A stretch of DNA of 64,000 nt from Clostridia bacterium (GTDB taxonomy: Bacteria > Bacillota > Clostridia > CAKSNL01 > HGM11501), in contig JAZNEB010000024.1 in NCBI GenBank assembly GCA_045588365.1, positions 114,854 to 178,853 of the forward strand, in the 5' to 3' direction. A program made the position numbers and the translations under genes. This document shows positions 1,286-52,579 of this stretch, piece after piece. Below the pieces are notes generated by a model that was not told the DNA's origin, made no database searches, and saw only the letters and a list, made by a program, of their open reading frames with translations. Each line of letters starts with the position of its first letter. The stretch's first letter is position 1.

Positions 1286-1292
1286 TAATAAA

Positions 1293-1318: not shown

Positions 1319-1331
1319 TCTTTTCTCCTTT

Positions 1332-2678: not shown

Positions 2679-2695
2679 TTTTACCGACCTCCAAT

Positions 2696-2800: not shown

Positions 2801-2857
2801 GCTAACAGAATTATATCACATTCCATTTAATTTGTAAAGCAAATTTTGACAAATTAT

Positions 2858-7581: not shown

Positions 7582-9477
7582 CTACCTTTCCTTGTAATAG
7601 TCTCCCAAAACCACCTTATCATTGGTTTCTATACTGTCCTTTACCCTTTTATTCTGCAGTGCAATATATTCCTGCTGGTCTGCAAACAGCTCTTCCTCTG
7701 ACGGCAGATAGTACATACTGCTGTCCATCCAGCCCCAGGTTTCAAAATAGGCAAAGCCGGGATTTTCGGGATCTAAAATATCGTTTCCTATATATCTTCC
7801 CTCATCGGAAAGACCGAAAAGATTCACTATGGTAGGCGCCCAGTCAATGGTCATCATGGGCTTTGACACCTCTAAGGGCTTTATCCCCTCTGCATATATA
7901 AACGCAGGAACTGTGTAAGAAAGAGTGTCCCCCTTCCATTCATTTAAAAGCTCAGAGTCAGAAACCCCGTAAGCAAAGTGGTCCGTATAGCCGATAATTA
8001 CGGTATCTTTCAGGAGGTCATCCTCTTTGAGTCTTTCTAAAAGAAGCCTGAAAAATTCATCTGTATCGTGTGCTAAAATTTCTATGTTATTTTTTTCTTC
8101 GGGAATTTCTTCATTTATGCGGTCTTCCCATATTTCCTTTGCCAAAAGAAGCTTGGGACTGTCTCCCTTATAAGGAAGATGCGCCGAGTAGGTTATGAAA
8201 AAGTTGAAAAACGGGGTTTCTTCCGTCATCTTTTCATAGATTTCATCATTCTTAAGTATGCTGCTGTCAAGCTCCGCCTCTGTCCCCGTAAGATTAAAAT
8301 CCTGAAAGGAATTATACTTATCATAGCCGAAGCTTTTATGCATAATACCTCTGTTATAAAACTCAGGACTGTTAAAATGGAAAGAATTTACCCCATAACC
8401 CTTTTCCTTGAAAAGTCGTGCCAGCGCATAGGGAAAGCTGTTGGTGCTGAAGTTTGATGCACTTACGGCACTTACAGGTGTAAAAAATCCCGTGTTGAAG
8501 GCAAATTCCGAGCTGAAGGTAAAGCCCACCCCGAAAAAGGGCGCATTGTAATTGGTGAAATTTATGCCCTTATTCATCATTTTATAAAGAGTGGGCGTGT
8601 TTTTTTCATCTATCATCCATGTATCCATGCTCTCCATCATTACGGCGATGACATTTTTACCCTCAAAAAGTCCCGTATACTTATGAACCGAAGGTTCGCC
8701 CTTGGCTTCAAAGTATTCATTTATTCCGTGTAAATCCTCCTCGGAATATTTTCCCTCGAAAAAAATATTCTTGCAAAGGTCAAGATATGTAAAATGATAA
8801 AGTCCCGTTATTTCAAACGCCTTATTTATGTCATTGAAGTTTTTATATACCACTCTGGGCTTTTTCCATGTATCCCAGCCGTTTACGTTGTCTTTGTGAA
8901 TTTCAGGTCTCATGCCGATATGGGTAAAAGCCAATGTAAGCAGCGGTATGAGAAATATTAAAATTCCTGTTTTCTTGCCTGTTTTCGGTTTGGTCCACGA
9001 AAAGAGGCCTATTATAAGAGAAATAAGCGCCGCCGACACATATATAATGACCCTTTCATCCACCATATTAAGGGCATAGCCGCAATAGTCCTTTCCCTCA
9101 CCTGCAAGAGCGATGCTTTTAAGCCAGAAAAACTGGTCAAATATTCTGTGATATATATACTGACTTAAGGAAAGGCATATAAAGGCCATAGAAATAGCAA
9201 AGAAAACTATTCTTCCCGCTTTTTTTGGCATAAGAAAAACACAGAAGAAAACAAATATAAAAACCCAGCAAAGCTCAAATATATAAGACACGGTTTTTAC
9301 ATAGCCCTCCGTAAAAAAGCCCGTCCCCTGAATACCTTTAACCAGCATATCAGGGAAAATAAGAGCGAGAGATAAAAATAAAATAAAGTAATATCTTTTT
9401 ATAAATTCAAGTGTCTTTTTCAAACAATACACCGCCCGAAGTTTATTTAATCTACAACATTTTACATATTTCAACAA
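7582..9477 (-). CDS. LTA synthase-like membrane sulfatase / phosphoglycerol transferase family protein
   Basis: N-terminal multi-TM region followed by an extracytoplasmic alkaline-phosphatase-superfamily (sulfatase) domain; 631 aa. Confidence 0.7.
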   Translation of the reverse strand: MLKYVKCCRLNKLRAVYCLKKTLEFIKRYYFILFLSLALIFPDMLVKGIQGTGFFTEGYVKTVSYIFELCWVFIFVFFCVFLMPKKAGRIVFFAISMAFICLSLSQYIYHRIFDQFFWLKSIALAGEGKDYCGYALNMVDERVIIYVSAALISLIIGLFSWTKPKTGKKTGILIFLIPLLTLAFTHIGMRPEIHKDNVNGWDTWKKPRVVYKNFNDINKAFEITGLYHFTYLDLCKNIFFEGKYSEEDLHGINEYFEAKGEPSVHKYTGLFEGKNVIAVMMESMDTWMIDEKNTPTLYKMMNKGINFTNYNAPFFGVGFTFSSEFAFNTGFFTPVSAVSASNFSTNSFPYALARLFKEKGYGVNSFHFNSPEFYNRGIMHKSFGYDKYNSFQDFNLTGTEAELDSSILKNDEIYEKMTEETPFFNFFITYSAHLPYKGDSPKLLLAKEIWEDRINEEIPEEKNNIEILAHDTDEFFRLLLERLKEDDLLKDTVIIGYTDHFAYGVSDSELLNEWKGDTLSYTVPAFIYAEGIKPLEVSKPMMTIDWAPTIVNLFGLSDEGRYIGNDILDPENPGFAYFETWGWMDSSMYYLPSEEELFADQQEYIALQNKRVKDSIETNDKVVLGDYYKER

Positions 9478-9528
9478 GGTTGATTATATACCATATTTCC
9501 AAAAAAATCAATCTTTAACTAAAACCTC

Positions 9529-9558
9529 TTGCAAATCCCTTCTTTTTCTGCTATAATA
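9529..9558 (+). promoter_or_regulatory. Sigma-A type promoter for proS
   Basis: TTGCAA - 17 bp - TATAAT (cttgcaaatcccttctttttctgctataat), about 35 bp upstream of the proS RBS. Confidence 0.4.
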
Positions 9559-9593
9559 TTACACTGTATAATAATGCAAAAGGGGTTTTTAAA

Positions 9594-11288
9594 ATGAAAG
9601 CTACAAAATTACTTATGCCCACCTTGAGAGAGGCTCCCGCAGAAGCGGAGATTGCAAGCCACATTCTCATGATGCGTGCAGGTCTTATATCAAAGCTTGC
9701 CGCAGGCGTATATTCATATTTACCTTTGGGACTTCGTGTTCTTCAGAATACCGAGCGTATAATCCGTGAGGAAATGAATAAGGCAGGTGCTCAGGAGCTT
9801 TTGATGAGTGCTCTTCTCCCTGCAGAATGCTATCAGAAGTCAGGCAGATGGGACCGCTTCGGAGACGATATGTTTCGTCTTAAAGACCGTAATGAAAGGG
9901 ATTTCTGCTTAGGTCCCACCCACGAAGAAATTTTCACACAGACGGTTATTGACTCTGTTCACTCCTATAAGGACTATCCTTATACCCTTTATCAGATTCA
10001 GACCAAATACCGTGATGAGCGCCGTCCCAGATTCGGCGTTATGCGTACAAGAGAATTTTTAATGAAGGATGCTTACAGCTTCGATATTTCCAAAGAGGGA
10101 CTTGATGCTTCCTACGATGCAATGTACGACGCTTATAAGAAAACCTTTGACCGCATGGGCCTTGACTATATGATAGTTGATGCCGACACAGGTGCTATGG
10201 GCGGCTCAGGAAGTCAGGAATTCATGGTGATATCCGACGTTGGCGAGGATACTATTGCCTACTGCGAAGCATGCCGTTATTCTGCAAATATCGAAAAGGC
10301 TGTTTGTATCAAGGGCGAGTCCTCCAAAGAAGAAATGAAGGAAATGAATAAGGTTGAAACTCCCGATGCAAAAACCATCGAAGAGGTTGCCGCTTTCTTC
10401 GGCAAAGAGGCTAAAGACTTTGTTAAGACCATGATTTATAAAGCTGACGAAAAAATCGTTGCAGTTTTAGTTCGTGGAGACAGGGAAATCAACGAAATCA
10501 AGCTGGCAAATACTTTGGGTGTAGCGGAAGTTGCCCTTGCCGATGCATCAGATGTTGTTTCCGTAACAGGTGCTAAGGTCGGCTTTGCAGGTCCCGTAGG
10601 TCTTAAGATTGACGTTATAGCAGATAACGAAGTTATGGGAATGAGAAACTTTATAGTTGGCGCAAACGAAGACGATTGCCACATAGAAAATGTAAATCCC
10701 GAAAGAGACTTCAAGGCAACTTTAGTTGCTGATATCCGTTGCATCGCTGACGGCGATATCTGTCCCGTTTGCGGCAAAGAAATTAAAACTGCTCAGGGTA
10801 TTGAGGTAGGACATATCTTTAAGCTGGGCACAAAATATTCCGAAGCACTGGGTCTTAACTTTACCGATGATTCAGGAGAAGCAAAGCCCGTAATAATGGG
10901 CTGCTACGGAATAGGCATCAACCGTTGTGTTGCCGCTATAATTGAACAGAATCACGACGAGGCGGGCATTATCTGGCCTATGGACGTCGCTCCCTACAAG
11001 GTGGTTGTTGTTCCCGTAAATTATTCTGATGAAACCCAGAAGGCTTTGGCTGACGAAATTACCGAAAAACTGGAAAATGCGGGAATTGAGGTTATTTTAG
11101 ACGACAGAGACGAACGTCCAGGCGTTAAATTCAAGGACTGGGATTTAATCGGCATACCCGTAAGAATTACAATAGGCAAAAAGGCAGCAGAGGGCATTTG
11201 CGAATATAAGTTAAGGTGCGAAAAGGAATATTCGGAAATGGCAAAGGATGATGCCATAGCTTCTGCAATTTCAAAGGTAAGAAAATAA
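9594..11288 (+). CDS. proS: Prolyl-tRNA synthetase (bacterial type with editing insertion)
   Basis: [32 protein letters not shown]...; class II aaRS motifs, INS domain, C-terminal anticodon-binding domain; 564 aa. Confidence 0.95.
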
Positions 11289-11325
11289 TAATAAAGCTAT
11301 AGATTTAAAGAAAGGAGAGTTTAAT

Positions 11326-12318
11326 ATGTCCCTTCAGGCACAGGTAATAGGCATTGATCTGGGAACCACCTCGGTTTTGGTTTATGTCCCCGATAAAGGC
11401 GTTGTTTTAAGAGAGCCTTCTTTGGTTGCAATTGATGCATCCACTAAAAAAATCCGTGCAGTAGGAAGCGAAGCGGAAGCTCTTCTTTCAAAATCTCCCG
11501 GTGAGGTTTTAGCTATCCGCCCTCTTAAGGACGGAGTTATATCCGACTATTTCACCACAGAAAAAATGCTCCGCACCTTCCTTTTGAGAGTGTGTAAAAA
11601 CAGAATTATAAAGCCAAAGGTTGTTATTTCTGTTCCCAGCTCAGTTACGGAGGTTGAAAAGCGTGCCGTGGTTGAGGCGGCAGAAGCAGCAGGTGCAATG
11701 CAGGCTCTCGCCATTGAAGAGCCTCTGGCGGCGGCTATCGGCGCAGGAGTGGATATTTCAAAGCCTCTTGGCACTTTGGTGGTAGATATCGGGGGCGGCA
11801 CTACAGACACCGCTGTCATTTCTTTCGGCGGCATAGTAAAGGCTCATTCAATTAAAACTGCGGGAAACCGTCTGGATGAAGCTATAGTCCGTTACATAAG
11901 AGACAAGTATGGTGTAGCTATAGGAGAACGTACCGCCGAGGAGATAAAGATAAATATCGGCTGTGTATTCCCCAGGGATGACGAGCTTTCCATGGAGGTT
12001 TTAGGCAGAAGCTTGGTTTCAGGTCTTCCCAAAACCATTACCGTTACGGGCTCGGAGCTTTTAGCCCCTCTTACCGAATGTTTTTACGATATTATTGATT
12101 CCATACATCAGACACTTTCCGTTACCCCTCCCGAGCTTGTAAGTGATTTAAGCTCCACGGGTATTGTTTTAACGGGCGGAGGAAGCCTTATTTCAGGCGC
12201 TGCAGGCCTTATACAACGAGAAACCGGCTTAGTTGTTCACCCTGCTGATGACGCTGTGGCTTCCGTTGCCAAGGGAACAGGTCTGGCACTTTCAGTAATC
12301 GAGTATATGAACCAATGA
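11326..12318 (+). CDS. mreB: Rod shape-determining protein MreB/Mbl (actin-like ATPase)
   Basis: IGIDLGTTSVLVYV...VIDIGGGTTDTAVIS... actin-fold phosphate-binding motifs; 330 aa. Confidence 0.85.
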   Translation: MSLQAQVIGIDLGTTSVLVYVPDKGVVLREPSLVAIDASTKKIRAVGSEAEALLSKSPGEVLAIRPLKDGVISDYFTTEKMLRTFLLRVCKNRIIKPKVVISVPSSVTEVEKRAVVEAAEAAGAMQALAIEEPLAAAIGAGVDISKPLGTLVVDIGGGTTDTAVISFGGIVKAHSIKTAGNRLDEAIVRYIRDKYGVAIGERTAEEIKINIGCVFPRDDELSMEVLGRSLVSGLPKTITVTGSELLAPLTECFYDIIDSIHQTLSVTPPELVSDLSSTGIVLTGGGSLISGAAGLIQRETGLVVHPADDAVASVAKGTGLALSVIEYMNQ

Positions 12319-14495
12319 GTATTTTTTCCAAACGGCCGGCACTTGTTTTAATAAGCTTTATCTTGGGAGTATTTTTATATAGATACTCCCTTTTTCTTTC
12401 GTTGCTCTTTTTAGCTCTTTCTCTTTTATCTTTGATTTTTCTCGGGAAAAAGGGACTCGTTCTTATTTTATGTGCAGTTCTTTTTTCTTTCGGCGGATTA
12501 TATACATCCTCAACAGAAAAATCAAAAACCAATGAGGCTCAAAGTCTTTTGGATAAGACAGACTATATAAAGGGAACCGTAATCTCCATTCCCGAAGAAG
12601 AAATTTACGGTTTTTCCGCCATTGTTGATTCAGATGGCGGAAAAATCTTTTTAATGACAAAGGAAAGCACCTTTAAATATAAAGACGAAATTATCCTTAA
12701 GGGAAAATTCTCCCTCCCCGATAAAAAGAGCAGAAGCTTTGATTTTGATTATTCGGACTATCTTAAAAGCAAGGGGATTTACATAACCTGCTTTGCAGAA
12801 GAAGTCATATCTTTAAGAAATTCGAGAAGCTCTTTTAATATAGTTGATATTGCCGCAGCATTAAAGGAATATCTTTTGAAAAAAGCGTCTTCCCTTTGGT
12901 CGGATGAAACTTTAATGTTTGCCCGTTCCATTTTGCTTGGGGATTCCTCTCTTTCATCTCAGGAGTTCAGGGAAAAGCTTGCAAACGCCAGCATCTCCCA
13001 TGTAGTCTCCGTGTCGGGAACCCACGTTTCTTTAGTGGCGGCAGCAGTGATGTTCCTTATAAATAAGCTTTCTTTAAAAAAGCGTTATCTTAAGTTTATA
13101 ACCCTTCCTTTTGTGTGCTTTTTCGTTATTTTGGTATCCCCGGCACCCTCTGCCATGCGCTCTTTACTTATGTTTATCCCCTTTGTCGTTGCATGGATTT
13201 ACTTTTTCAGTTATGACGCCCTAACATCCTTGATTGTTTCAGGGACTTTAATTTTGCTTTATAATCCATTCTCGGCTTTTTCACTTAATTTTCTTTTATC
13301 CTTCGGAGCCATTTGGGGAATTATACTTTTCACAAAGCCCTTTATAAGATATCTTAAAATAATTCCCATCCCGTATATTACCGATTGCCTTTCGGTTACT
13401 CTTGCGGCGCAGGTTTTCATTTTGCCCGTTTTACTTTTCACTTTCGGGAAAATCCCGCTGTTTTCCCTTCTGGCAAATCTCCTGATTGTGCCGCTTATAC
13501 CCTTTATTATGGGTTTTGGTTATTTAGCTCTGGCTTTGCCCGGAGGACTTTTCTTTGACTTTCTTACAGATTTGCTCATTGGCGCTTCAATTAAAATTGC
13601 CGGATTTTTCGGCAAAGCTCCTTTTTCCAATCTGAGCCCTGCATACTCTCCCGCCCTTTTTATGGCGACATTCATATCTTTTATACTTTTGCTGGTTTTC
13701 TTTTTCATAAAGAAAAACAAAATAGCTTCATTTATACTTTTGAACCTTTGCCTTTTATCACTTTTATTAACCTTCATCTCGCCTTCTGTATTTCCCCTTG
13801 AGGAAACCCGCTTTTTAGATTGCGAAAGAGGCTCATGCACCATTGCTATAAACGGAAGCTGCTCTGTAATGGTTGACCTTGAATCAAGCGAAAATGATTT
13901 TTCCAAAAACACCTTAATACCCTATCTTAAACGTAATGGCCATTCCTCTCTTGACGTATTGGCTTTAACGGAATATAATAACAGTGATGAAATTATTTTC
14001 TTTCTTCAAAGCTTTCCCGTAAGATATCTTATCCTTCCCGAAAATACAAAAGACGATTTGCTTTTGGATTTTGCAAAATCTAAAGGCTGCAAGGTTATTT
14101 TTGCATCGGAAAATGACTCCTTTACTATCGGAGGAATAACTCTTTTCGTTCCCTATGAGGCCTTGGGCAAAGCTACCTATATCATTGAAAATAACGGTGG
14201 CCGTTCCCTTGTTACGGGAGATATAAATGTTTACGAGGAAGAGGCTTTGGCAGAAAGTCTTTCCGAATCCAGAACGCCAATAGATGTACTCATCGCTCCC
14301 CGAAACGGAAATAAAGGGTCCTGCACCGCTTCTTTACTTAAGAGTGCAAATCCAAAAAGTGTAATAGTAAGTACAAACCGTAACCTTTCGGACAATTTTG
14401 CTGAAAGACTCCATGGTTTTAACCTTTTATCCACAAAAGATTCAGGAGATATAGTCCTTAAAAAGGGCATGATAATACCATATAAAAAGAGGTGA
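12315..14495 (+). CDS. comEC: ComEC/Rec2 DNA internalisation competence protein
   Basis: Polytopic membrane core with SHVVSVSGTHVSLVAAAVMFLI (competence domain) plus a C-terminal metallo-beta-lactamase-like region; 726 aa; 4-bp overlap with mreB. Confidence 0.85.
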   Translation: MSIFSKRPALVLISFILGVFLYRYSLFLSLLFLALSLLSLIFLGKKGLVLILCAVLFSFGGLYTSSTEKSKTNEAQSLLDKTDYIKGTVISIPEEEIYGFSAIVDSDGGKIFLMTKESTFKYKDEIILKGKFSLPDKKSRSFDFDYSDYLKSKGIYITCFAEEVISLRNSRSSFNIVDIAAALKEYLLKKASSLWSDETLMFARSILLGDSSLSSQEFREKLANASISHVVSVSGTHVSLVAAAVMFLINKLSLKKRYLKFITLPFVCFFVILVSPAPSAMRSLLMFIPFVVAWIYFFSYDALTSLIVSGTLILLYNPFSAFSLNFLLSFGAIWGIILFTKPFIRYLKIIPIPYITDCLSVTLAAQVFILPVLLFTFGKIPLFSLLANLLIVPLIPFIMGFGYLALALPGGLFFDFLTDLLIGASIKIAGFFGKAPFSNLSPAYSPALFMATFISFILLLVFFFIKKNKIASFILLNLCLLSLLLTFISPSVFPLEETRFLDCERGSCTIAINGSCSVMVDLESSENDFSKNTLIPYLKRNGHSSLDVLALTEYNNSDEIIFFLQSFPVRYLILPENTKDDLLLDFAKSKGCKVIFASENDSFTIGGITLFVPYEALGKATYIIENNGGRSLVTGDINVYEEEALAESLSESRTPIDVLIAPRNGNKGSCTASLLKSANPKSVIVSTNRNLSDNFAERLHGFNLLSTKDSGDIVLKKGMIIPYKKR

Positions 14496-16004: not shown

Positions 16005-16081
16005 GTGCATGTAGCTCAGCTGGATAGAGCACTTGGCTACGGACCAAGGTGTCGAGGGTTCGAATCCTTTCATGCACGCCA
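16005..16081 (+). tRNA. tRNA-Arg (anticodon ACG) with encoded CCA
   Basis: Cloverleaf read by hand: acceptor GUGCAUG/CAUGCAC, D arm GCUC-AGCUGGAUA-GAGC, anticodon stem CUUGG/CCAAG with loop CUACGGA, T arm GAGGG-UUCGAAU-CCUUU, discriminator G, CCA. Confidence 0.85.
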
Positions 16082-16117
16082 AACAAAAAACCACCCACGG
16101 GTGGTTTTTTTGTTTGC
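16082..16117. terminator. Bidirectional rho-independent terminator after the tRNA
   Basis: AAACAAAAAACCACCCACGGGTGGTTTTTTTGTTTG: a palindrome with poly-A/poly-T arms. Confidence 0.6.
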
Positions 16118-16261
16118 GGTTTCAATCTTAAGGATTCGAACCCTGAGAGGGCATTTAGCGTATAAAAAAAGTTGCCAGGGGCAAGTTTTTTAGCTAAATG
16201 GTGCGTAGGCGGGTACCGAAACCGCAGGTTTGGGTCGCCGAGCAAGGGAGATGCGTAGCAT

Positions 16262-16323
16262 ATCCTTCCTTTCATGCACGCCAAACAAAAACACCATCCT
16301 TTTGGGTGGTGTTTTTGTTTTTC
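16262..16323 (+). repeat. Direct duplicate of the tRNA-Arg 3' end (about 26 nt) plus a second, related bidirectional terminator
   Basis: CCTTTCATGCACGCCAAACAAAAA is identical to the tRNA 3' portion plus the start of its terminator, followed by CACCATCCTTTTGGGTGGTGTTTTTGTTTTT. Inverted T-arm-like copies CTTAAGGATTCGAACCCTG(A/T)GAGGGCAT occur at 16128-16160 and 16455-16485. Confidence 0.6.
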
Positions 16324-16488
16324 AATGGATTTGAAAGGATTCGAAAGGCGTGTCCAAGAAAATGATTGATTATCATTTTCCACGCCGTGGCTTTCTCGCA
16401 AGAAAGCGAATCCGTCGTGGCCTCTTTCCCTCTGTATGCGTGGAAGCTTACTTTCTTAAGGATTCGAACCCTGTGAGGGCATCGCTTT

Positions 16489-17043
16489 CTATTCCCTGAT
16501 TTCATAATCAAAGCTAATCATTCTTACGCCGAAAAGTTCTTCTGCCCGGTCGTTATTCAATGTGCGAGAAAAAGCCCGTCCCCGACGATCGATGTAAAGA
16601 GCATCTACTCGGTCAACATTATCTGGACCGGCGCTCCAACCTGTATCCATATAAAATTCAGCACTGCCGGCATAGTAATAGATTTCGGAGGCATTATACC
16701 CTAAAAGCTCTGTAGTATCTACGTCGGAAAGGTCAAGCAGAGTAAAGGAAAGAACCTCATTCCCGTCTTCTTTTGTTTCCTTACTTGGAATGTATATGGT
16801 ATATTTTTTATTGATGACAGAAGCTGTAGAAAAAATGTTTATATCATATTCATCAAACTCACAAACAGCGGTATCGGAAATTGTAATGATTTCTCCGTTC
16901 AGCGAATATTTCAAGGTGAAATCTATTTCTTTTTTTCCTTCATAAATAAATTCTTTAACCAAAGTTATTACAGGCATACTAAAGCAAAAAATAATGAAAG
17001 CATTTAAGGCTATTCCAATAGCAATAAGTAAAGCTTTTTTCAT
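16489..17043 (-). CDS. Small N-terminally membrane-anchored protein; candidate immunity protein (paralog of 55080-55646 and 55664-56236)
   Basis: 184 aa, MKKALLIAIGIALNAFIIFCFSMPVITLVKEFI... with conserved C-terminal AEELFGVRMISFDYEIRE; about 60% identical to the two locus-2 paralogs. Confidence 0.6.
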   Translation of the reverse strand: MKKALLIAIGIALNAFIIFCFSMPVITLVKEFIYEGKKEIDFTLKYSLNGEIITISDTAVCEFDEYDINIFSTASVINKKYTIYIPSKETKEDGNEVLSFTLLDLSDVDTTELLGYNASEIYYYAGSAEFYMDTGWSAGPDNVDRVDALYIDRRGRAFSRTLNNDRAEELFGVRMISFDYEIRE

Positions 17044-17096
17044 AAAAATCCCCTTTTATTTCACTTCTTTGAGTGCAGAAATTACGGAATCTTTTA

Positions 17097-17447
17097 TCAA
17101 TTGTCAGTTGTTTCTCCTTTCGTTTTGATAAAGCCTATGAAAAACACTATACTCCATAAAAAAATCGCAATTCCATACTCCGCTATGGCGATAACTTTTC
17201 CGATGGAAAGCTCGTCGTATTTACTTATAAATGTAACATACGGAAGTAGGAAAATGCATATTTCCAAAAGTCCTTTGAAAAAATTACCTTTACTTGTTTT
17301 CATTTCCATCATGACAAGATAAAAAGGATGTGCCGACATTATGGGAAGCATTATAAATAGATTTTCTGAATTTAAAATTCTGAAAAAAAGTAATAATATC
17401 GAAGGGATGCTTTTTATCAAAAATTTTTTTACCGCTTCTTTTTTCAT
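17097..17447 (-). CDS. Small 3-TM membrane protein (holin-like or immunity candidate)
   Basis: 116 aa, three hydrophobic helices; sits between the PG-binding toxin-like gene and the small anchored protein. Confidence 0.45.
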   Translation of the reverse strand: MKKEAVKKFLIKSIPSILLLFFRILNSENLFIMLPIMSAHPFYLVMMEMKTSKGNFFKGLLEICIFLLPYVTFISKYDELSIGKVIAIAEYGIAIFLWSIVFFIGFIKTKGETTDN

Positions 17448-17464
17448 GACATCACCTTTTTCTT

Positions 17465-18535
17465 TTATTTTCCGTTTACTATAATTCCGTCAGAAAGAAT
17501 AATATTTTCTAAATATCTAACTTTAGGAATTATGCCCAGGACTTGCAAAACTCCTCCGTTTATAAGCATAGTCTGCGCTATTTGACTGCAATTGGAGAAA
17601 AGCAAATTATATCTAGGATTTTTTGTAGCGATATTTATTCCACTTTCTAAAATTTTCTTTCCCTGCTCGGGGGTTATTTTGTATTTTAACCCCTTATCAT
17701 ATTGTTCCGTACAAAAATCCCCATTTGATGTTGGAGTTTTAATTGTTGCTCCCCAAAGAAATTTATCGGTAGTTTCTTCATCAAAAACTCCTATTCGCAT
17801 ATCTGATTGAACACCAAAAGGCCATACTCCTGCTTTAGAGTGCTTAATGTAACTAAATAAAATACTTTCTCCATCTTCGTTTATCAAAAGCAACCCTGCA
17901 TGTCCGGCTCCATACGCACCTTGATTATCAATCAGATAATACGCCTGTGTAATACTTTCAGTATCATAATTTCTTAAATTATCTACCGTAACATCTATTG
18001 CTATCTGAGCTGTTCTTCTATCATTTTCCGTTGCTATAGCATACGCCTCATCAAAAACTGTCAGCAATTTATACTTCGCTGAATCCTCGCCATAGTTATA
18101 TGCATCGGGGTCTTCGCTCCATTCGCCCTTTGCATTATAGCCCGGCTTTATTACTCCCGATTCTTTTATTTTGCTTGTTTCCGGGCTTTTGCTCTCTGCA
18201 TCTGAATTCATAAAATATAAATCCTCTGTTTCAGAAACATCGGAAGAAAACATGTTTTCTTTCTCCTTCTTTTTATCGCTTATAGCTTTCCAGGTTTTGT
18301 CTCCCACAATACCGTCGGGAACAAGACCGTTTTCCTCCTGAAACTTTATGACAGCATTAAATGTGTTTATACCAAAAATTCCGTCTTCCGAAAGCTGTCT
18401 TCCCAAGGCGTCGGTATAGCCCATAGAATTAAGCTCCTTTTGAAGCACCTTTATTGTTTCGGGTGAGCCTGTATGGACAGATAATGTACTGCCCTCATCT
18501 TTTAACTCTTCAAATTCAAATTCGTTGTTATTCAT
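17465..18535 (-). CDS. PG_binding_1-domain protein with C-terminal permuted papain-fold (LRAT/NlpC-P60-like) domain; candidate cell-wall-targeting toxin or lysin
   Basis: 356 aa with no signal peptide. N terminus LQKELNSMGYTDALGRQLSEDGIFGINTFNAVIKFQEENGLVPDGIVGDKTW (peptidoglycan-binding repeat). C terminus AYYLIDNQGAYGAGHAGLLLIN...YNLLFSNCSQIAQTML, aligning with the His...NCEH block of 58418-60136. Confidence 0.6.
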   Translation of the reverse strand: MNNNEFEFEELKDEGSTLSVHTGSPETIKVLQKELNSMGYTDALGRQLSEDGIFGINTFNAVIKFQEENGLVPDGIVGDKTWKAISDKKKEKENMFSSDVSETEDLYFMNSDAESKSPETSKIKESGVIKPGYNAKGEWSEDPDAYNYGEDSAKYKLLTVFDEAYAIATENDRRTAQIAIDVTVDNLRNYDTESITQAYYLIDNQGAYGAGHAGLLLINEDGESILFSYIKHSKAGVWPFGVQSDMRIGVFDEETTDKFLWGATIKTPTSNGDFCTEQYDKGLKYKITPEQGKKILESGINIATKNPRYNLLFSNCSQIAQTMLINGGVLQVLGIIPKVRYLENIILSDGIIVNGK

Positions 18536-18718
18536 TTTATCATATTTCCTCCTTATTTACAATAATTTTTTGAAAGTGCTTACGCACTAACCCCCTATCT
18601 ATAACTATTATAACACAAAAAGTTAAATTTATCAAGAATAAATTAACCTAATGGGCGTATTTATTTTGATGTGTTGCCTTTAGAATAGGTTTTGAACTTA
18701 TTTTCCCTTCAAAAAACA

Positions 18719-18995
18719 CTTGCTTTTTTCTACATTATATGTTAGAATGTTTTATAATGTAAAAAAGCTATGAACGGGAAAGTAAGTTTTTCATTTTCTG
18801 TAAAGAGAGGGAGTGCCGTGGGCTGAAAGCCTCCCCGTGAAAAGAAATTCCGAAGTTCGCCCGGGAGCTGCATTTCTGAAACCAAGTAGGATTTGCCGTT
18901 TTGCCTTGCGTCAAAGGATTAAAGTGCCTTTTTTAAGGAATTAGGGTGGTACCGCGGATTTTTTCGTCCCTGCTTTTGCAGGGACTTATTTTTTT
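18719..18995 (+). promoter_or_regulatory. T-box riboswitch leader (Phe specifier) with promoter and terminator, upstream of pheS-pheT
   Basis: Promoter TTGCTT-17-TGTTAGAAT; stem I with an AGAGA GA-motif; UUC present in a candidate specifier loop (gaaattccgaaguucgcc); canonical T-box AATTAGGGTGGTACCGCG at 18939-18956; terminator GUCCCUGC-UUUU-GCAGGGAC plus U9 at 18966-18995. Confidence 0.8.
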
Positions 18996-19017
18996 ATTAT
19001 ACCAAAGGAGTGTTAAA

Positions 19018-20037
19018 ATGAAACAACAGCTCGAACAAATCAAACAGGAGGCAATTTCTGCTCTTGAAAATGCCCACCTTATGTCTGAAATTGAAGATTT
19101 CAGAATTGCCTTCTTAGGTAAAAAGGGAAAGCTTACATCTGTTTTAAGAGGAATGGGTGCTCTTTCTCCCGAAGAAAGGCCCGTTATCGGACAGATGGCA
19201 AACGAAATAAGAGAATTTATTGAAAAGAACGTTGAAGAAAGGAAGGGTGCAATCCTTAAAGAGGAGAAATCCAGAAAGCTTCGTGAAGAAATTATTGACG
19301 TAACTCTTCCCGGCAAGAGAAAGAACAGTGCAAATCTCCACCCCCTTGCAAAGGTGTCAAGAGACCTTGAAAACATCTTTTTGGGAATGGGCTTTTCCAT
19401 CGTTGAAGGACCCGACGTGGAGTACGACCACTATTGCTTTGAGGCCTTAAATATGCCTAAGGACCATCCTGCAAGAGACACTCAGGATACCTTCTATATT
19501 ACAGAGAACATTCTTCTTCGTACCCAGACTTCTTCCGTACAGATAAGAACCATGGAAAATCAGAAGCCGCCCATAAGAATTATCTCCCCCGGCAGAGTTT
19601 ACCGTTCCGACACGGTGGATGCCACTCATTCTCCCCTTTTCCATCAGCTTGAAGGGCTTGTAATTGACAAGGGCATCACCATGAGCGATCTGGTGGGAAC
19701 ACTTGAAACCTTTGTAAAATCCTTATACGGCGACGATATTAAAATCCGTTTCCGTCCCCACCACTTCCCCTACACTGAGCCCAGTGCCGAGGTTGACATG
19801 TCCTGCTTTGCCTGCGGACAGAAGGGCTGTCCCATCTGTAAGGGCGAAGGCTGGATTGAAATCTTAGGCTGCGGTATGGTTCACGAAAAGGTTTTGGAGG
19901 ATGCAGGAATTGACCCCAAGGTATATTCCGGCTTTGCTTTCGGTATTGGTCTTGAACGAGTTGCCATGATGAAATATGATATTGATGATATGCGTCTGCT
20001 TTACGAAAACGATGTTCGTTTTCTCAAGCAGTTTTAA
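19018..20037 (+). CDS. pheS: Phenylalanyl-tRNA synthetase alpha subunit
   Basis: [20 protein letters not shown]... through class II core motifs ([30 protein letters not shown]). The ORF-track start at 18946 overlaps the T-box terminator, so the true start is the ATG at 19018 with RBS AAAGGAG. Confidence 0.95.
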
Positions 20038-24286: not shown

Positions 24287-27200
24287 TTATCTGCCTAAGA
24301 GATTCATTAATCTGGTAAGCATAACTACTGCTTCTGCTCTGGTAGCTTCCTTCTTAGCACCGAAGGTTCCGTCGGGGTATCCTGAGATAACGCCCTTGTC
24401 AGCTGCCCAGTTAACCTGGTAGTTTGCATAGGTGGAAATTTCAGCCTTATCAGCAAAGCTTGCTTCGCCTGAGATTTCCCACTCTGCTCCAACCTTGGTA
24501 GCATAACGGTAAATCATGGTTGCCATCTGTTCTCTTGTAATCTTTGCATAGGGTGAGAATGTGTCTTCAGTAGTACCCATTGTGATACCCTGATTTACTG
24601 CCCATGCAACTGCATTAGCGAACCAGTCGCCTACATTTACGTCTGCAAAGTTCTCAGAGCCGTCTGATGTCTGACCTGATATCTTATAAAGAATCTGGCA
24701 GAACTCAGCTCTTGTAATATCGCTGTCGGGGTCAAAGGCTGTCTCTGACTTACCGTTTACGATATAGTCAACATACATATTGCTGATGGCTTCCTTAGCC
24801 CAGTGATTCTGAATGTCAGCAAGGTCTGTTGCCTGACGAACCTTTCTTACATAGGGATATACTGTCAGGCTGCCTGTAACTCCTGTGTTTGCATAAGGAA
24901 CTGTGTAAGCAGCGTCAAGATACCAGCCTACAAATTCGTATCCTGCCTCTACAGCGGGAGCTGAAAGAACTGTGCCCTTGGTAACTGCCTGTGTTCCGAC
25001 ACCTGAAATTACAACCTGGAACTTATCGCTTACGCCGCCGAAGCCGCCGCCACCGAAGCTTTCAGGCTTATCGTCATCGGATGAGTCGCCTCCGCCGCCC
25101 TGAGGTCTCTGAGGCTGACCGCCTGACTGCTTGAGTTCCCAAACAGCAACGAATGTCACGTCTTCATCAGGCATTACGAATGGGTCGCCTGCGCTGTAAA
25201 GAGTATATTCTTCTCCTTCTGCTACAACCTCTCCAGTCCAGTTCCAGCCCTTAAAGGTATAGCCAGTAAGCTTAAGGCTGCTTGATGCGATGGTGATTTC
25301 GTCGCCTTCCATATAGAACTTGGAAGCGGGAACGGTTCCCTTTGCACCGTGTTCGTCAACGTAGGTTACCTTACGACGGGTAACACCCTCTGCATCAGCA
25401 ATGATGTGAATGTCGCCTCTTGCGTTGAATATTGTAATTACACCGATTTCATCGCCGGGATTTAAGCTCATAAGAGATACTTCGCCGGGAACGGTTGTCT
25501 TTACATAAGAGAAGTCAAGACCGCATACAAGAACGTGTCCGTCCTGTGTGATTTCGGTAATTTCGTTGGGAAGCTCCTCTCCCTCGTGAGCTACCAATGT
25601 AACCTCTAAGGTTTCACCCTTTGTAGCTGTCGTAGGAGTATCAGCTGTTGTGGAAAGACCAACTAAGTCGGTTGTTACCTTAACTTCGCCGGGAGCAACG
25701 GCAACTGTACTTACCTTAACAACTGCATCTGCATAAAGGTCAGCAATCTTGAATTCTTCTGTCTTTGTACCCTTTCTTGTAACCTCACCCTTAACAGCAA
25801 CGTTCTTTTCTGTTGCTACTCTTTCAATAAGGTTGATGTCGGCAACGGAGAAGTTGGAGTTTCCTCTCTTCATCCAGATATAAAGACCGTCCAATTCAAT
25901 GGGATCAAATGTGATTGCCTGAAGTGTTTCATTTGCTAAAAGAGTACCTGTCTTGAAGGGAGTGTCAGCAATAACGCTGTCAACTATTGCATAGAGCTTA
26001 TATTCTCTTACGCCCTGTCCTGCTGCATAAGCATTGGGGCTTGTTAAGTGAATTCTGTGCTGCCAGCTCATGGAAGAAAGTGTAACTCTTCTTCCGAATA
26101 TAGCGGTAATATCAAGGTCGTTATTTACAGAGTCGTAGCTTCCGCCATGACCTGCTGTATCGGACCAGACATCAGTTGTATTGTTGTTATCAAATGCTCT
26201 GTGGATACCGTAGTCTCTGCCGGAATTTCTAAAGCCATTTGTGGTAAGAGTCCATGTATCATCAAACAGCAAGGGCTTTTCTTCATAGGTAGTCTGGATG
26301 TTTTCTTCGATTTCCCATACAGCCTCATATCCGTCTTCTATGATGGTTGCAACAAATACTGTATCCTCATGACGCTTTGCATCGAAGGGAGATACTGAAA
26401 CCTCACCAATTACTTCGCCTGTTTCCTTATCTACTCTCTTAGCAATAACTGTTACGTTAGCATCCTGAGAACCGAATGTTACAGAGTGGATTTCTTCTTC
26501 CACATAGCCTGCGGGAACACTTACGTCATCGCCCATAACAAAGCTCATAACGAAGTCGAATTCTTCGGGAAGAACTGAGCTTCCGTTATCTAAGAAGAAG
26601 TCCTTTGTGATAACGATTGTCTCGCCCTGTGTATTGATGTAGGAGGGGTCAACTGTGGTAATTACTTCGCCCTCTGCCACAACCCTGATTGCCGAAAGAG
26701 CAACTGCATCGTTGTAAACTACGCCGAAGGACACATCCCTGGGGTCAGTCTCTGAGAAGAGAGCTCTCTCTCCCTCAAAGGTGATTTCTGCAGGATTCAA
26801 GCTTCTTCCTGAACCGGGCTTGTAGAGACAGATTTCCATTATACTTGTAGGATTGGAAGTGGTAACAATGCAAAGTCTTAAGTATCTTGCAGTTACGTTT
26901 ACTTCCTCGCCGTTTATCATAAACTTGATGTCGTCGTAGGAATTTTTGTTTGAGCCCTTATCAAGAGTTGCCTTCCAGGTGTCTGAGGTGAGCCAGTTTA
27001 CACCGTCGTTTGATACCTGGAGATAAGCCTTATTCATTGTCTGACCGAACTGACGGTTTCCTCCGCTTACCCATACTCTGTGATATACTCTTACACCCGA
27101 GAAGGTGTGAGGAATCTGATAGTCAATTTCGATAACGGGATATGCCCCTGTTGTGCTGTCAGAGTAAATTTCAGCTGCTGCACTTTCAACTGTAAAGCCG

Positions 27201-30200
27201 CTGGATTTAAGCTTCTTGTCGTCATCGGAGTTTGTCATAATTTTTCCGTCGGCAGTTCTTCTTACAACACCTCTGTCAATGAGGTTTCCTACTCCGCCGC
27301 CGTTGGAATAGCCTGATACATACTTGATTGTGTTTGCGAAGTTATAGGGAAGAACTTCATCACTAAACAGCTTTTCACCGAAGCTTACATTAAGTACGGC
27401 AGACATTTCGCCGCCAAATACTTCGATTGTTGTTGCTACACCTGCAGTCTTTATTGCACTCAGTGCGCCCTTCTTGATGGTGAGCTTCATTGTTTCTGCA
27501 TCAAATGTATAGTTGGATGAAGAAACTGTCGCTCCGCCAACCTTAACGCCTGTTACGGGAAGGTCGGTATAAACAACAACTTCTTCATTTGCATTTGCCT
27601 TCTCAAGAGTTACAGAGGTCATAACGCCGCCGAACTCATTGTAAATTCTGAGAGAAGGTGCAAGGAATCTGATTGATGCCGCTGTAGCATACTGCGTATT
27701 TGAGATATAAATTCTTAAGTATCTTACTTCTGCATTCTTAGAGAAGCTGAGGTCGGTAGTTCTTGCACTGCCTGTTGCCTTTCCGTCGTAAAGCTTCTCC
27801 CATGTTTCAAAGTCATCAGAGCCAAAGATTTCAACCTTGGACCAGTTAGGCTGATACTTTCCTCCTTCATATCTTGCATAGTAACGAAGACCGCCGATTT
27901 CTGCTGTAGCACCAAAGTCGATGTCAAGATAATGGTTGTTGCCTTCGTTTGTTTCACCGTGGTAACGGTAACCACCTGTTAATTCTGCCAATGTTGATCT
28001 GAAGAATGCATTTACGGGGTGGTTTGCTCCCGCATTGTTCCATACAGAGTCAGGTCTTACTGCAAAATCGGGATATTCTGTGATGATATCAATTTCATCT
28101 GAAGCAAAGGTAGCATCGGTAGATAATGCATTTGCCTTTGTTGCCCAGTAACCCGAAAGAATTACCGAATAGGTGAGATATGAATTGTCCTCAAACTTAA
28201 CCAAAAGCTGAAGCTTTCCTGTTTCAAGACCCAACGCCTTATATACGTCAAATGCCTTACGGAAGTCGCTTCTTCCGATTGTAATTGTTTCTTCATTTGC
28301 TGTGAAGGGAATTACAGTTCCGTCAGATTTCAATACTACCTTGGTAACTGAAAGACCCTTTATGTTCTTAAGCTCAAGCTTTTCTGTTCTTGCTACAGAA
28401 GTGCCATTGTAGTAGCTGAACTTGAACTCGGTCTCTGTGCAGTCGTTAACCTTCAAGGTGGTCTCACTTACTTCGCCGCCTGCGAAATAAACCTTTAAGG
28501 GATATGTTCCAACTTCAAATTCTAAGAAGTATTCCTGGTCGATCGTAATTTTGTCTGCTTCAACCAGATATCTGGTGTTGGAAATTTCTTCTCCGTTAAA
28601 TTCAACCTTGGAAATTGCCTTTCCTGAAGGATAGGTAATATAGTTAACAACAACGTCTTCCTGAAGCTCGGGAGCACCCTTTTCAAACTCTAAAGTGCCC
28701 AATATTCTTGAAGAAGGCTTTAAGATACGGATAGCATTTGCTGTGGGATAGCCTGTATTACCGATATAGATTCTTAAGTATCTTACTTCGGTATTGCCAT
28801 CAAACCACAAATCGTTAATTCTTTCGCTTGTTGCGGAGCCTTCATAAAGGGTTTCCCAAGTTTCAAAGTCAGTTGAACCGGAAATTACAATCTGGCTCCA
28901 GTTGGGATCCAAGAAGGGAAGTCCGGTGGTGCCGTTGGTAGCAATTCTTGCAATGTAACGAACGCCGCCTACGGTTACGTTTTCACCGAAATCAACATCA
29001 AGGTAGTGGTTTCTTCCTTCATCGGTTGAAGCATGATAACGCTGACCTGCAGCCTCCTCTGAGATTTCTTCCTGGAAGAATGCGCCTGCAGGATGGTTAC
29101 TTACAGCATTGTTCCATACAGAGTCGGGTCTTATTGCGAAGTTTTCATAGTCAAGAATGTTAATTTCATCTGTATCAAAGGTTGCATTTACTGTCAAAAC
29201 ACCTGTCAAATCTGCTGCTGTTACCCAATCACCGGAAATGGTAATGGTATAAGTTAAGGTTGTATCATCCTCGAAGGTAACTACTACCTTATGCGCACCT
29301 TCTTCCAATCCCATTGCTGCATATACGTCAAATGCCTGACGGAATGCTGTTCTTGTGATTGTGATATTGCTTGTGTTTGCAGTAAAGGGAATTTCAACTG
29401 TTTCATCTTCAAAGAGAGTAACCTTGGTTACGTTAAGTCCCTTTACGTTATTGAGAACTATTTCTTCTGTTCTTCTGACTGAAGTTCCTGACAAGTAGGA
29501 GAACTTAAATTCTGTCATTAAGCTGTTTGCAACCTTAAGCGTTGCGGTAACAGGATCAGCAATATCATTAAAGTAAAGCTTAAGTTCATAGTCGCCTATA
29601 TTCATTCCAACTAAGCTTTCCTTTTTGATTGTAACTGTTCCGTATTCACCAATAAAGTAATCCTCGGAAGAAATTTCTTCTCCTTCAAGTTCAATCTTGG
29701 AAAGAGTCTTTCCGGAAGGATAGGTTACATAGTTAATTACAACATCATCTGCAATCTCTGTTGCTCCTGCTTCAAAACGTAATTCATTTGTTACTCTCGA
29801 GGTGGGCTTCAAGAAGCTTAAGGAGTTTGCTGTTACGTGAGCATTTACACCCTCGATGTAAATTCTTACATATCTTACGCTTGCATTGTCGCTAAATCCA
29901 AACTCGTTTATTCTCTGGCCGTTATTTGCAGCCCCTTCATAAAGCTTTGTCCATGTTTCAAAGTTTGTAGAACCGTAGATTATAACCTTCTTCCAGTCGG
30001 GAGTATAGTTTCCGCTTTCAAGCCTTGCCTGATAGCGCAAGCCGCCTACGGTTACAGTTTCACCGAAGTCAACATCGATATAGTGGAGCTTTCCTTCGGT
30101 TGTTTCGGCGTGGTAGTTATATCCGGTTACACCCTCTGCCGCTCTGGGATAGAAGAATGAGCTCATGGGATGGTTTTTCCATGCGTTATTCCATACAGAG

Positions 30201-33200
30201 TCTGCTCTTACAGCAAAGTTGTCAAGCTCTGTAACGTCAATTTCGTCATCATCGTAAGCTTTTAAAGAAGCATCAGACATTAATGTTATTTCCTGGAAGT
30301 CTGCCTTGGTGAACCAGTGACCTGTCATATTGATGGTGTAGATCATAGATACTCCGCCTTCAAACTCAACCTTTACTTTAATCTGTCCGCCATCCTTGCC
30401 CATTTCCTTATAAACATCAAATGCCTTACGGAAGTTGCTTCTTGTAATAGTAATTGTTTCTTCATCAGCGGTGAAAGGAATTTCCACTGTATTGTCCTCT
30501 AAAAGAGTAACCTTTGTTGCTGTGAGTCCCTTTACATTGTTTAATGTAATATTCTCCGCTCTTGTAAGAGATGTACCACTTCTGTAAGTGAACTTAAATT
30601 CAACCTGGCTGAAGTCAATTACATCAATGCTTGCAGATAAAACTTCACCTGTTCCAAAGGTTATCACAACCTCATGGCTTCCCTTTTCAAGAGAAAGTGC
30701 AAATTCTTCTGAAAGAACAATCTTTTTATCAACTAAAGTATAGTCTGTATTTAATGTAAGTTCTTCTTCGTCAACCTCTACCTTGGTAACCTCGGTAGCA
30801 TCAACTGTAAGAGTAATGTCGTCTATTATAACATCCTCAGGAACGGAAACGTCAATCTGTACATTTCCTTCATTTGTAATTCTGGGAAGATTTGCAATCT
30901 GAGCTGCAGTCTTGGTTACAACATCCTCATCATCAATGGGATCAATAAGACGGATTTCGGAGAATGCCCATACGTTCTGAACATAATTCGGATTATTTTC
31001 TGCAATTTCAGTCGCTTCAACCTTTAAGTATCTTGCCTTAAGGTTGTACTGTGTTCCGCCGTATACAGCCATCATGTCCTGACTTAAGTTGATTCTTGCA
31101 CCCGAGAACATATCAGACTTTAACCAGGTTTCTCCGTCCTCAGAAACATAGATATAGCCCTTGGTCATGTTCTGATGACCGCCGTTGTTTTCGAACAATT
31201 TGGTGCCATCGCCTGAAATTCTGCCGTAAACTCTTACACCGGAGAAGGTCTTCTCTTCGCCTAAGTCTATCTCAATCCATGCTGTTGTGGCATCGGCAGT
31301 TCCCTGTTTATTTGCTGCAACTGCATTTGCGATTTCAACAAACTGGCCTGATATTTTTCCGTAAGCGTTATCAAAAGCATAGATAAGCTTGTTAAGTGAG
31401 CTTGCTGTAGCAGTACCATTTGTGCTACCCAGTGTCAGTGCACTTTCTAAAGTTTCTTTTGCAGGAAGGTCTATATCTCCCTTTGCTAAGGGGTTAAAGT
31501 CGCCACCGATAAAGTTATGCGAAAGTTCTTCGCTCGGCCAATCTTCCTTATCCCTGGGCTTTAACACTTCAATTTCCATTATACAGGTGTACTTTGTTCC
31601 ACCGTTCTGGGTTGCGAGAGTTACAACCTTGATACCAACTAATTCCTCAGCCTCTTCAAGGTATATGCTCTTAGGCTGTCTGTCATAGCCTTCTGAACCC
31701 TGAACGTCGTACTTGGTATATAAAATTCTTCCGTCAATAATATGTCTTTCTTCGGTGCCGTCCGCAGTTTTATATATACCTATAAGTCTTACATCCATGG
31801 GGCTTGATCCATGGCTTGCGTCAGGTCTGTGATAGAGTCTTACACCGCCAACGGGAATTTCCTCATTGAACATAATTGTAACGGTCTTTGCATCTAAAAG
31901 TCCCTGTCCTGTTGCAGTTGTTTGGTGGTTTCCGTGCCAGCCGTTGGTGTAAAGGTTTCCTAATGTAACTCCGTCAAAAAGTCGGGGAGTCCATGTCTTG
32001 ACATTGGATTCAACAGGCTCTGCAGTTTCTCCGTCGTGAGTTGTTGAACCAACCTTGGTATTTGCCATATCTATATATACGGAAGGATCATAGAAGTCAG
32101 ATAAGCCTGCTGTCTGTGCAGGAGTCAAAGCAGCTTCATTTGCAATGGGATCTAAAAGTCTGATTTCAGAAACTGTCCAGTTTCCTGCTTCGCCACCGTA
32201 AAGCTTAGTTGCTACAAGCTTTACATATCTTGCCTTTATGTTCTTGGCTTCTTTGCCGAACTTTGTGGGAACATCCTGATAAAGAGCTGTTTTGCTTGCT
32301 GCAGCAAAGCCGTCTGTACTATACCAGTTTTCACCGTCTGAGGATAACAGGAGATAACCGTGTGTGAGTCCCTGCATACCTGACGCATAAACAGTTGTGG
32401 CATTTTCACGTCTGTTGTAAACTCTTAAGCCCGAGAAGGTAATCTCTCTGCCTAAGTCAAACTCAATCCACGCCTTTTCGTTTGCAGCTGTATTTACACA
32501 GTACAAGTATTCAAAATGACCGGGAGATGCACCTGTATAGCCCATTAAGTTATCATAAAGATATTTCGAAGGCCACTGAACGGGATTTTCCGCATTCTCT
32601 GCATCCGAACCGATTGTAACGGTTACAGGAGGCATGGAGAAATCACCGTCTGCAAAGGTCAAAGGATAGGTGATTTCTGCAGAAGGTCTCAATTCAACTG
32701 CCTTGGGCTTTAAGATTTCAATTTCCATAAGAGCAACAAATGAAGGATTTGTTGCAGGATTTTCACCCTGGAATACAAGGTCAATACCCACAAGGTCCTC
32801 TAAGGGGTCATCAAAATAGATGCTCTTACCGTCTAAGTCATAGCCAGAAGCATTTAATGTGAATGTAACATGATGTCTTGAAAGGGGAAGCTTCTTTGTT
32901 CCGCCGTTTCCGTCATCATAAATTCCTACAACGTCAAAGTAGCCGGGTGTTCCTGTTCCATTCTGTCTGGGATAAAGTCTTACACCGGCAACAGTTTTTT
33001 CGCCGTCAATAAAGTCGTCATTGAACATAACTGTAATGGTTCTGCCTGCATCATCTGTACCGCTTGCAGACTGCCAGCCGTAAAGGTTGAATGCAGAAGA
33101 CTCTATAACTCCGTCAAAGAGCTGAGATATATTATAGCTGCTTGCTAAAGCAGAACCGTAAGCAGAATTTTCAAGGTCGATATATTTATCCGCCTTGTAG

Positions 33201-52560: not shown

Positions 52561-52579
52561 CAATCAGATATTTAGTTTT

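Follow-up and report, generated by a model that had tools for sequence, protein, structure and literature searches.

A probable polymorphic toxin-immunity cassette at a variable site between tRNA-Arg and pheST in a Clostridia bacterium

What role do three closely packed minus-strand open reading frames (ORFs), coding for proteins of 356, 116 and 184 amino acids (aa), play between the tRNA-Arg(ACG) gene and the pheS T-box of an uncultured gut Clostridia bacterium? We addressed this question with a stretch of 64,000 nucleotides (nt) from contig JAZNEB010000024.1, called the window below, on the sequence of which ORF, Pfam, Rfam, BLASTP and alignment analyses were run. An initial annotation had placed the three ORFs at the positions where we also found them, on the minus strand (Table 1), and had regarded them as mobile, recombining cassettes rather than housekeeping wall hydrolases, with a holin-like and an immunity-like protein beside the largest one. 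All three proteins have paralogues in a second cluster at 55-60 kb of the window. Judged from sequence comparisons, the locus is probably a small polymorphic toxin-immunity cassette that was dropped into a tRNA-Arg/pheST hotspot, and the 356-aa protein is most likely an interbacterial polymorphic toxin with a swappable cysteine-hydrolase tip.

The 356-aa protein begins with a peptidoglycan (PG)-binding head, to which Pfam assigned PG_binding_1 (E 3e-15) as the sole match above threshold. The second cluster consists of a 572-aa toxin (58418-60136), a 252-aa membrane protein, a 450-aa toxin, a 190-aa protein and a 188-aa gene. Residues 3-92 of the 356-aa protein were 73% identical to the first and 76% identical to the second PG-binding repeat of the 572-aa protein, and 77% identical to the 450-aa protein (BLASTP of the 356-aa protein against these two paralogues: E 3e-58 and 9e-45, respectively). 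The N-terminal paralogy of about 70% that had been claimed for repeat 1 is thus borne out. With heads that are 73-77% identical, these paralogues carry different tips: the 356- and 572-aa proteins each have an LRAT-like one, and that of the 450-aa protein is lipase-like, with Mbeg1 as its Pfam resemblance. Elsewhere, three proteins (P0016, P0017 and P0006) keep the head and carry unrelated C-termini, so that a shared N-terminal region is combined with unrelated C-terminal toxin domains.

In a database search, the C-terminal domain of the 356-aa protein recurred in about a dozen proteins, all from uncultured Clostridia, and their alignment was divisible into four regions: the head, a low-complexity linker, a junction motif and the tip. 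The length of the linker is very variable among these homologues. The junction motif, G(V/I)IKPGYNAKGEWSEDPDADNYGKDS (also written GVIKPGYNAKGEWSEDPD..YG), is nearly invariant, and the homologues diverge into different tips after it; it is kept in P0016 and P0017 despite their unrelated C-terminal domain. When a profile of the tip alone was searched exhaustively, 274 cluster representatives were obtained, with the match lying near the C-terminus in the best 150 of them. Among eight long representatives, the tip followed RHS repeats in five (P0096, P0108, P0172, P0065 and P0174), Peptidase_M23 in two and a PG-binding head in one. Because this tip also terminates RHS proteins and alternates with others on a conserved head, the architecture is that of a polymorphic toxin. 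Exact-sequence look-ups for the 356-aa toxin (P0001) and for P0005 found no match.

The C-terminal blocks of the 356- and 572-aa proteins aligned over 175 residues with 38% identity, in the way described by the initial annotation, pairing GAGHAGLLLIN with GMGHAGVLLVN and NLLFSNCSQ with NLLEQNCEH. His212 was invariant in 12 aligned sequences and Cys316 nearly invariant, being present in each homologue whose sequence extends that far. The predicted permuted papain-type block with a conserved His is thus supported. Since the residue after the Cys varies across the family (D, S, E or N), we read NCSQ as an ordinary variant, and 'NCS' as an inactivating change was rejected for this reason. In an AlphaFold2 model of the tip, a strand (residues 212-219) opens at the His and a helix (residues 316-326) opens at the Cys. 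Taken together, the tip likely belongs to the circularly permuted papain/NlpC-P60 branch (LRAT-, YiiX- and TseH-like), with His212 and Cys316 as the putative catalytic pair; its assignment to a specific family is unproven. Pfam LRAT (PF04970) did not match the 356-aa protein, and the score for the 572-aa paralogue was 16.4 versus 24.3 bits. A profile search of PDB sequences with the tip gave no match.

Hints at the substrate point in two directions. Peptidoglycan is suggested by the Peptidase_M23 fusions and the TseH match, a lipid by matches to PLAAT, RID and CLN5, by the lipase tip on the same head and by the predicted intramembrane immunity protein. We lean slightly towards a lipid.

One distant metagenomic relative of the tip stands at the end of an 829-aa protein (L094, positions 2-2822), and the 829-aa representative P0148 has an NPCBM plus Peptidase_M23 architecture. 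After the L094 gene comes an ORF of 121 aa in which three segments are hydrophobic, and a small multi-pass partner may therefore accompany remote members as well.

The 116-aa protein is encoded directly 3' of the toxin gene. It has four hydrophobic stretches, two of which were called by a Kyte-Doolittle scan (threshold 1.6) and the others read by eye; of its earlier description as a protein with three transmembrane (TM) segments, the multi-pass character stands and the three clear segments do not. It resembles the C-terminal half of the 252-aa protein of the second cluster (30% identity, E 6e-5), and the motifs HPxYL, Y(K/R)EK and EM..LLPYF are conserved in this membrane module. Examining the genes downstream of toxin homologues in eight other contigs, we found that the module directly follows seven of seven LRAT-like toxins (two in the window and one each in L081, L082, L084, L085 and L087), and that after the LRAT-like toxins of relatives and of the second cluster it comes in one copy (130-141 aa) or as a tandem duplicate (252-293 aa). 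It never follows lipase-tipped toxins with the same head (window, L083, L088 and L089).

In contig L084, tip fragments without a head and additional genes of the membrane module come after a complete toxin and its membrane partner. Two of the three fragments there directly precede TM-module genes and the third a gene of the 184-aa family. An NC(D/E)H-type fragment has its best match in the 572-aa toxin (51%), and the TM protein encoded after it has its best match in the partner of this same toxin (39%, E 1e-23). The L084 array extends from 7877 to 12675 and contains tip fragments of 67, 84 and 119 aa, one 184-aa-family gene and four membrane-module genes; it should be useful for pairing tips with immunity subtypes. 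A similar beginning of an orphan array is present in L085.

Because the module co-occurs and co-varies with the tip and not with the shared head, we infer that the 116-aa protein would be the cognate immunity protein of the tip. The initial annotation had called it holin-like, and a leaderless toxin with a holin-like, TcdE-like exporter of 116 aa and the 184-aa protein as immunity would indeed account for a toxin that lacks a signal peptide and is directly followed by the gene of a small protein that has three to four hydrophobic segments and ends in a short charged C-terminus. Clostridial toxins without a leader have been documented to depend on holins for their export (PMC3369941, PMC9527704). 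Like TcdA and TcdB with TcdE (PMC3369941) and like endolysin-holin pairs, the cassette has a wall-binding protein that lacks a leader and, after it, a small membrane protein with several passes, and its PG-binding head resembles those of endolysins. However, the membrane protein here follows the tip and not the head, and no phage context was found. An exporter for the head should accompany all head-bearing toxins and not headless fragments, so that immunity fits better: the module tracks the tip subtype, follows headless fragments that need no export, is missing after lipase toxins with the same head and occurs as tandem duplicates of 250-290 aa. Moreover, no family of Pfam, NCBIfam or PHROGs, holins included, matched the 116-aa protein. 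On these grounds the holin role was rejected, and we consider the exporter reading improbable.

The third protein of the cassette, of 184 aa, has one N-terminal membrane helix and an ectodomain that is confidently predicted to be beta-rich, without a solved relative. It is 67% identical to the 188-aa (E 2e-86) and 55% identical to the 190-aa protein (E 2e-62) of the second cluster, in agreement with its earlier description as a paralogue of the small proteins there. No NCBIfam or PHROG family matched it, and its own family is tiny (8 clusters among 5.8 billion). The family is found directly after all four lipase-tip contexts: in the window and in L083, with two copies each, and in L088 and L089. 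The proposal that the 184-aa protein is the immunity partner of the 356-aa toxin is not supported by this comparison, since its family follows lipase tips in four independent contexts. Because of this association we interpret the 184-aa gene as probably an orphan or extra immunity gene, directed against lipase-tipped sister toxins of the second cluster or of neighbouring strains. In L087, a gene of the family occupies the same chromosomal position, before methylase and trehalase genes, and the toxin upstream of it is an LRAT-like replacement with its own membrane partner. The situation is similar to that in other systems, where immunity genes are orphaned by displacement (title of PMC5361080).

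The second cluster (window 52379-60136) is strain-variable, with 95% identical flanks and different toxin content. Both L087 and L088 are 95% identical at the nt level to window positions 52379-55672, which comprise the trehalase gene, the DNA methylase gene and the putative 188-aa immunity gene; upstream of this stretch, L087 has an LRAT-like toxin with a 293-aa membrane protein and L088 a lipase toxin. The junction region of the 356-aa toxin gene (window 18065-18166) is 87% identical to L087 at the nt level, and the heads of the two window clusters are ~80% identical. This nt-level conservation makes head and junction substrates for homologous exchange, and we infer that they serve as handles by which recombination swaps the tips.

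The lipase-tipped 450-aa ORF of the second cluster (56249-57601, minus strand) starts at a GTG. Its first ~40 residues correspond to residues 115-155 of the 572-aa protein, meaning that it begins in the linker before the second PG-binding repeat of the latter. The gene may be a copy minus the first repeat, or its true start may be a different one.

Is the site of the cassette itself also variable? The left flank consists of comEC, holA, a small EamA transporter gene and tRNA-Arg(ACG), the right flank of the T-box leader followed by pheS and pheT; ARAGORN and Rfam thus bear out the placement beside the tRNA gene and the pheST T-box. The related contigs L090 and L092 (HolA 93% and 80% identical at the aa level) have the order proS-mreB-comEC-holA-EamA-tRNA-Arg-T-box-pheST without the cassette. 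In L091 (HolA 93%), a large minus-strand surface-protein gene lies 3' of the tRNA gene (12040-13935). The tRNA-Arg gene is at the equal position in all three. In L001, which is closest by PheS (86% nt identity), colinearity with the window begins only at 18710 and extends rightwards, and the T-box element of pheST is shared according to Rfam; upstream of L001 pheS we found a giant minus-strand surface-protein gene (1-5363). An rRNA operon as the content of the 5.6 kb upstream of L001 pheS was rejected, since Rfam detected none and the giant minus-strand secreted-protein gene is present instead. In blastn, window 16267-16472 corresponded to L090 11564-11769 (99.5% identity) and window 18711-19100 to L090 11823-12212 (95%), so that the 2,238 nt between them in the window stand against 53 nt in L090. 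The tRNA-proximal site is therefore empty in two syntenic relatives and taken by a surface-protein gene in L091 and L001, which settles the question of its occupancy raised by the initial annotation: the interval between tRNA-Arg and pheS is a hotspot of recombination whose cargo varies. The L090, L091 and L092 assemblies carry head-bearing toxin cassettes at other loci, between unrelated housekeeping genes. A metagenome scan with holA found nothing.

These results bear on the possibility that the 356-aa protein is an ordinary autolysin or wall-remodelling hydrolase, accompanied by membrane regulators and acting in turnover, division or sporulation. Its head type, PG_binding_1, is that of SleB, SleC and many amidases, the superfamily of the tip includes peptidoglycan peptidases, and two distant relatives fuse the tip to Peptidase_M23. 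However, the closest relatives lack the cassette at the syntenic site, its locus differs from genome to genome, multiple diverged and tip-swapped paralogues coexist in one genome, tips are borne by RHS proteins and occur with partners in orphan arrays, and the partner families are extremely narrow and fast-evolving. A housekeeping autolysin was rejected on the variable occupancy and the RHS-borne tips, and we regard this explanation as very improbable.

The left side of the cassette is rich in tRNA-derived repeats. Positions 16267-16291 repeat the tRNA 3' end perfectly over 25 nt, and two inverted T-arm copies are present (AAGGATTCGAACCCT; three matches versus 0.12 expected). The att-like debris that had been noticed beside the tRNA gene is thus real. 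The 29-nt repeat at the left junction recurs at 16126-16154, and at the corresponding position in L090 the inverted tRNA-Arg copy runs on for 49 nt. The repeats are organized in ~200-nt units, which start with a perfect tRNA 3'-end copy (TCCTTTCATGCACGCCA) plus a terminator-like hairpin and hold an inverted T-arm copy; the repeat core at the site is AAGGATTCGAACCCTG(A/T)GAGGGCAT. L090 has one such unit (unit region 11564-11822), the window two (16065-16488), L091 two in the opposite order (11564-11920) and L092 three (11540-12190), so that compared with L090 the window has one extra unit after the tRNA gene. The units match no Rfam family, and a permissive scan of the tRNA flank gave the tRNA alone. 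They could be accreted att-flanked mini-elements or a small repeat that targets the tRNA 3' end.

Genomic islands linked to tRNA genes are known, as are CIME-like, att-flanked mini-elements that accrete at tRNA 3' ends. As in such islands, the tRNA 3' end is duplicated here, and the number and order of the ~200-nt units as well as the cargo vary. Unlike them, the site has no integrase ORF between 15900 and 18760, its tRNA-derived repeats are confined to 16055-16482, left of the cassette, with none on the right, and the junction lies in an inverted and not a direct tRNA copy; an integrase with flanking direct att repeats, as in a tRNA island, was thus not found. Of the proposal of mobile, recombining cassettes, the recombination and the variable occupancy are upheld by our data, and the mobility mechanism is not, given the missing integrase and the one-sided att-type repeats.

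Just as improbable is a functionless, decaying remnant of a prophage lysis module or tRNA-integrated island, which would fit the adjoining tRNA 3'-end duplicates, the lower GC content (0.30-0.37 in the cassette versus 0.41 in the window) and the match of the head to PHROG endolysin families (best E 8e-15) but is opposed by the lack of PHROG matches to the tip, the 116-aa and the 184-aa protein, by an empty scan of viral contigs with the tip profile, by the absence of phage or integrase genes nearby, and by three intact ORFs with ribosome-binding sites (AGGAGG before the ATG of the 356-aa toxin gene), a promoter-like site and conserved catalytic His and Cys. The combination of holin match, muralytic domain and phage context by which a phage holin-endolysin cassette is recognized was not found, and a prophage lysis module was rejected because phage context was not found.

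Polymorphic toxin systems of the Rhs, CDI (contact-dependent inhibition) and LXG types were defined by Zhang et al. in 2012, with PG-binding as an accessory adhesion domain (PMC3482391). The locus shares with them a conserved N-terminal part, a variable tip, a downstream immunity gene that co-varies with the tip by gene neighbourhood, orphan arrays and the same tip on another delivery scaffold, the RHS proteins. Orphan tip and immunity genes downstream of a full toxin were found in L084; the window cassette has the orphan 184-aa gene only. Unlike in the known systems, the head is just PG_binding_1, the proteins are short (356-570 aa), and the junction, the tip and both putative immunity families are without a Pfam or NCBIfam match above threshold.

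Several findings weigh against a polymorphic toxin-immunity cassette. No recognizable secretion or trafficking element was found: the 356-aa toxin has no signal peptide or hydrophobic N-terminus in a hydropathy scan and no LXG, WXG or PAAR domain in Pfam, and it differs from the known systems also in having no two-partner secretion (TPS) domain or RHS shell. Secretion genes were absent from the window neighbourhood and from eight related loci, where the neighbours are housekeeping genes. The tip reached the threshold of no Pfam or NCBIfam family (TseH, PF25218: 17.0-19.1 bits versus a cutoff of 27), and Foldseek against the PDB matched the head alone and not the tip. The AlphaFold2 model has a mean predicted local distance difference test (pLDDT) score of 69, falling below 50 beside both catalytic residues. 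The immunity roles that we propose for the two small proteins are read from gene neighbourhood, and the 184-aa family occurs also downstream of an LRAT toxin plus TM pair in L087 and L084, so that it may have a part to play with toxins of this kind too. Finally, the comparison genomes are metagenome assemblies throughout.

If the locus is a polymorphic toxin-immunity cassette, its three genes would be transcribed as a single operon, and the toxin would leave the producer without a signal peptide, by a route not visible here. The head would bind the cell wall of related Gram-positive cells, and the cysteine-hydrolase/acyltransferase tip would attack a substrate of the envelope on the outer side of the membrane. 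This substrate would be the acyl ester of a phospholipid or else a peptide amide, in peptidoglycan or linked to a lipid. We place the putative site of action outside the cytoplasm because both immunity proteins are predicted to be located in the membrane. In other Gram-positive toxin systems, membrane-bound immunity has likewise been read as a sign of a toxin with an extracytoplasmic action (PMC12419801). A further and tentative possibility, which we think rather less likely than the cassette itself, is that the PG_binding_1 head and the GVIKPGYNAKGEWSEDPD junction constitute an undescribed, secretion-system-independent mode of toxin deployment in Gram-positive gut anaerobes. Leaderless toxins would then arrive at the wall along an unrecognized path and attack the outside of a neighbour's membrane from there, with a permuted papain tip that would be a lipid-directed acyl hydrolase or transferase and would be neutralized in the membrane by a new polytopic immunity module.

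Two known protein families come close to the tip. TseH, which forms an effector-immunity pair with TsiH in Vibrio cholerae's type VI secretion system (T6SS) (PDB 6v98; PMC4453574), shares 14% identity with it and scores 17-19 bits in Pfam, less than the required 27. TseH is delivered by the T6SS into the Gram-negative periplasm, whereas the host here is Gram-positive and without T6SS. The other comparison is with the LRAT/PLAAT (H-RAS-like suppressor) acyltransferases and the permuted YiiX/YaeF branch of NlpC/P60, reportedly described by Anantharaman and Aravind (2003). Unlike these, the tip has no second His at the LRAT spacing, its motif is NCSQ, and Pfam LRAT scores below threshold in the 572-aa protein and gives no hit in the 356-aa protein.

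Much less is known about interbacterial toxins in the dominant gut Clostridia than in Proteobacteria and Bacteroidales. The locus provides a compact putative toxin-immunity system and a tip family of 274 cluster representatives without a Pfam or NCBIfam match above threshold, together with two uncatalogued candidate immunity families (no Pfam, NCBIfam or PHROG match), one of them predicted to be intramembrane. It also illustrates clearly how cassettes turn over between strains at defined hotspots of the chromosome. There is no export signal across the toxin family, which points to an as yet undescribed delivery route. For annotation, our results suggest that the label 'peptidoglycan-binding domain protein' can hide toxins in these genomes, and that a small multi-pass protein is not necessarily a holin when its gene adjoins that of a wall-binding protein without a leader.

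Table 1. Coordinates of the cassette and of its landmarks in the 64,000-nt window
Feature	Position	Strand	Basis
Putative toxin gene, 356 aa, without signal peptide: PG-binding head, disordered linker, junction motif, permuted papain-like tip	17465..18535	-	ORF and domain evidence
Polytopic membrane protein, 116 aa, one copy of the ~120-aa module, proposed cognate tip immunity	17097..17447	-	Module homologues
N-terminally anchored 184-aa protein, beta-rich ectodomain, family paired with lipase-tipped toxins	16489..17043	-	Homologue neighbourhoods
PG_binding_1 domain, residues 26-85	18281..18460	-	Pfam
Junction ('pre-toxin') motif GVIKPGYNAKGEWSEDPDAYNYGEDS, residues 127-152	18080..18157	-	Alignment
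Toxin tip, residues 153-349, two helices then permuted papain-like core	17489..18079	-	Alignment and model
His212 codon	17900-17902	-	Inside tip
Cys316 codon	17588-17590	-	Inside tip
Promoter-like site, TTGATA, 17 nt, TG-TATAAT, 11/12 matches	18607..18635	-	Consensus scan
tRNA-Arg(ACG), conserved left landmark of the variable site	16005..16081	+	ARAGORN, Rfam
T-box leader of pheST, conserved right landmark	18761..18974	+	Rfam, 115.4 bits versus gathering score 93
Two ~200-nt units	16065-16266, 16267-16472	+	tRNA 3'-end copy and terminator-like hairpin each
Left cassette junction: inverted tRNA-Arg T-arm copy (AAGGATTCGAACCCT) in 29-nt repeat	16454..16482	+	blastn, repeat scan
2,238-nt segment missing from the syntenic L090 site	16473..18710	.	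blastn

The putative promoter-like site in Table 1 lies ~70 nt 5' of the start codon of the toxin gene and was recognized by its match to the consensus pattern alone. Just 3' of pheST, the window contains a 3,476-aa ORF (24287-34717, minus strand). Giant genes for secreted surface proteins seem to move around the pheST neighbourhood, as seen in L001, L091 and the window.

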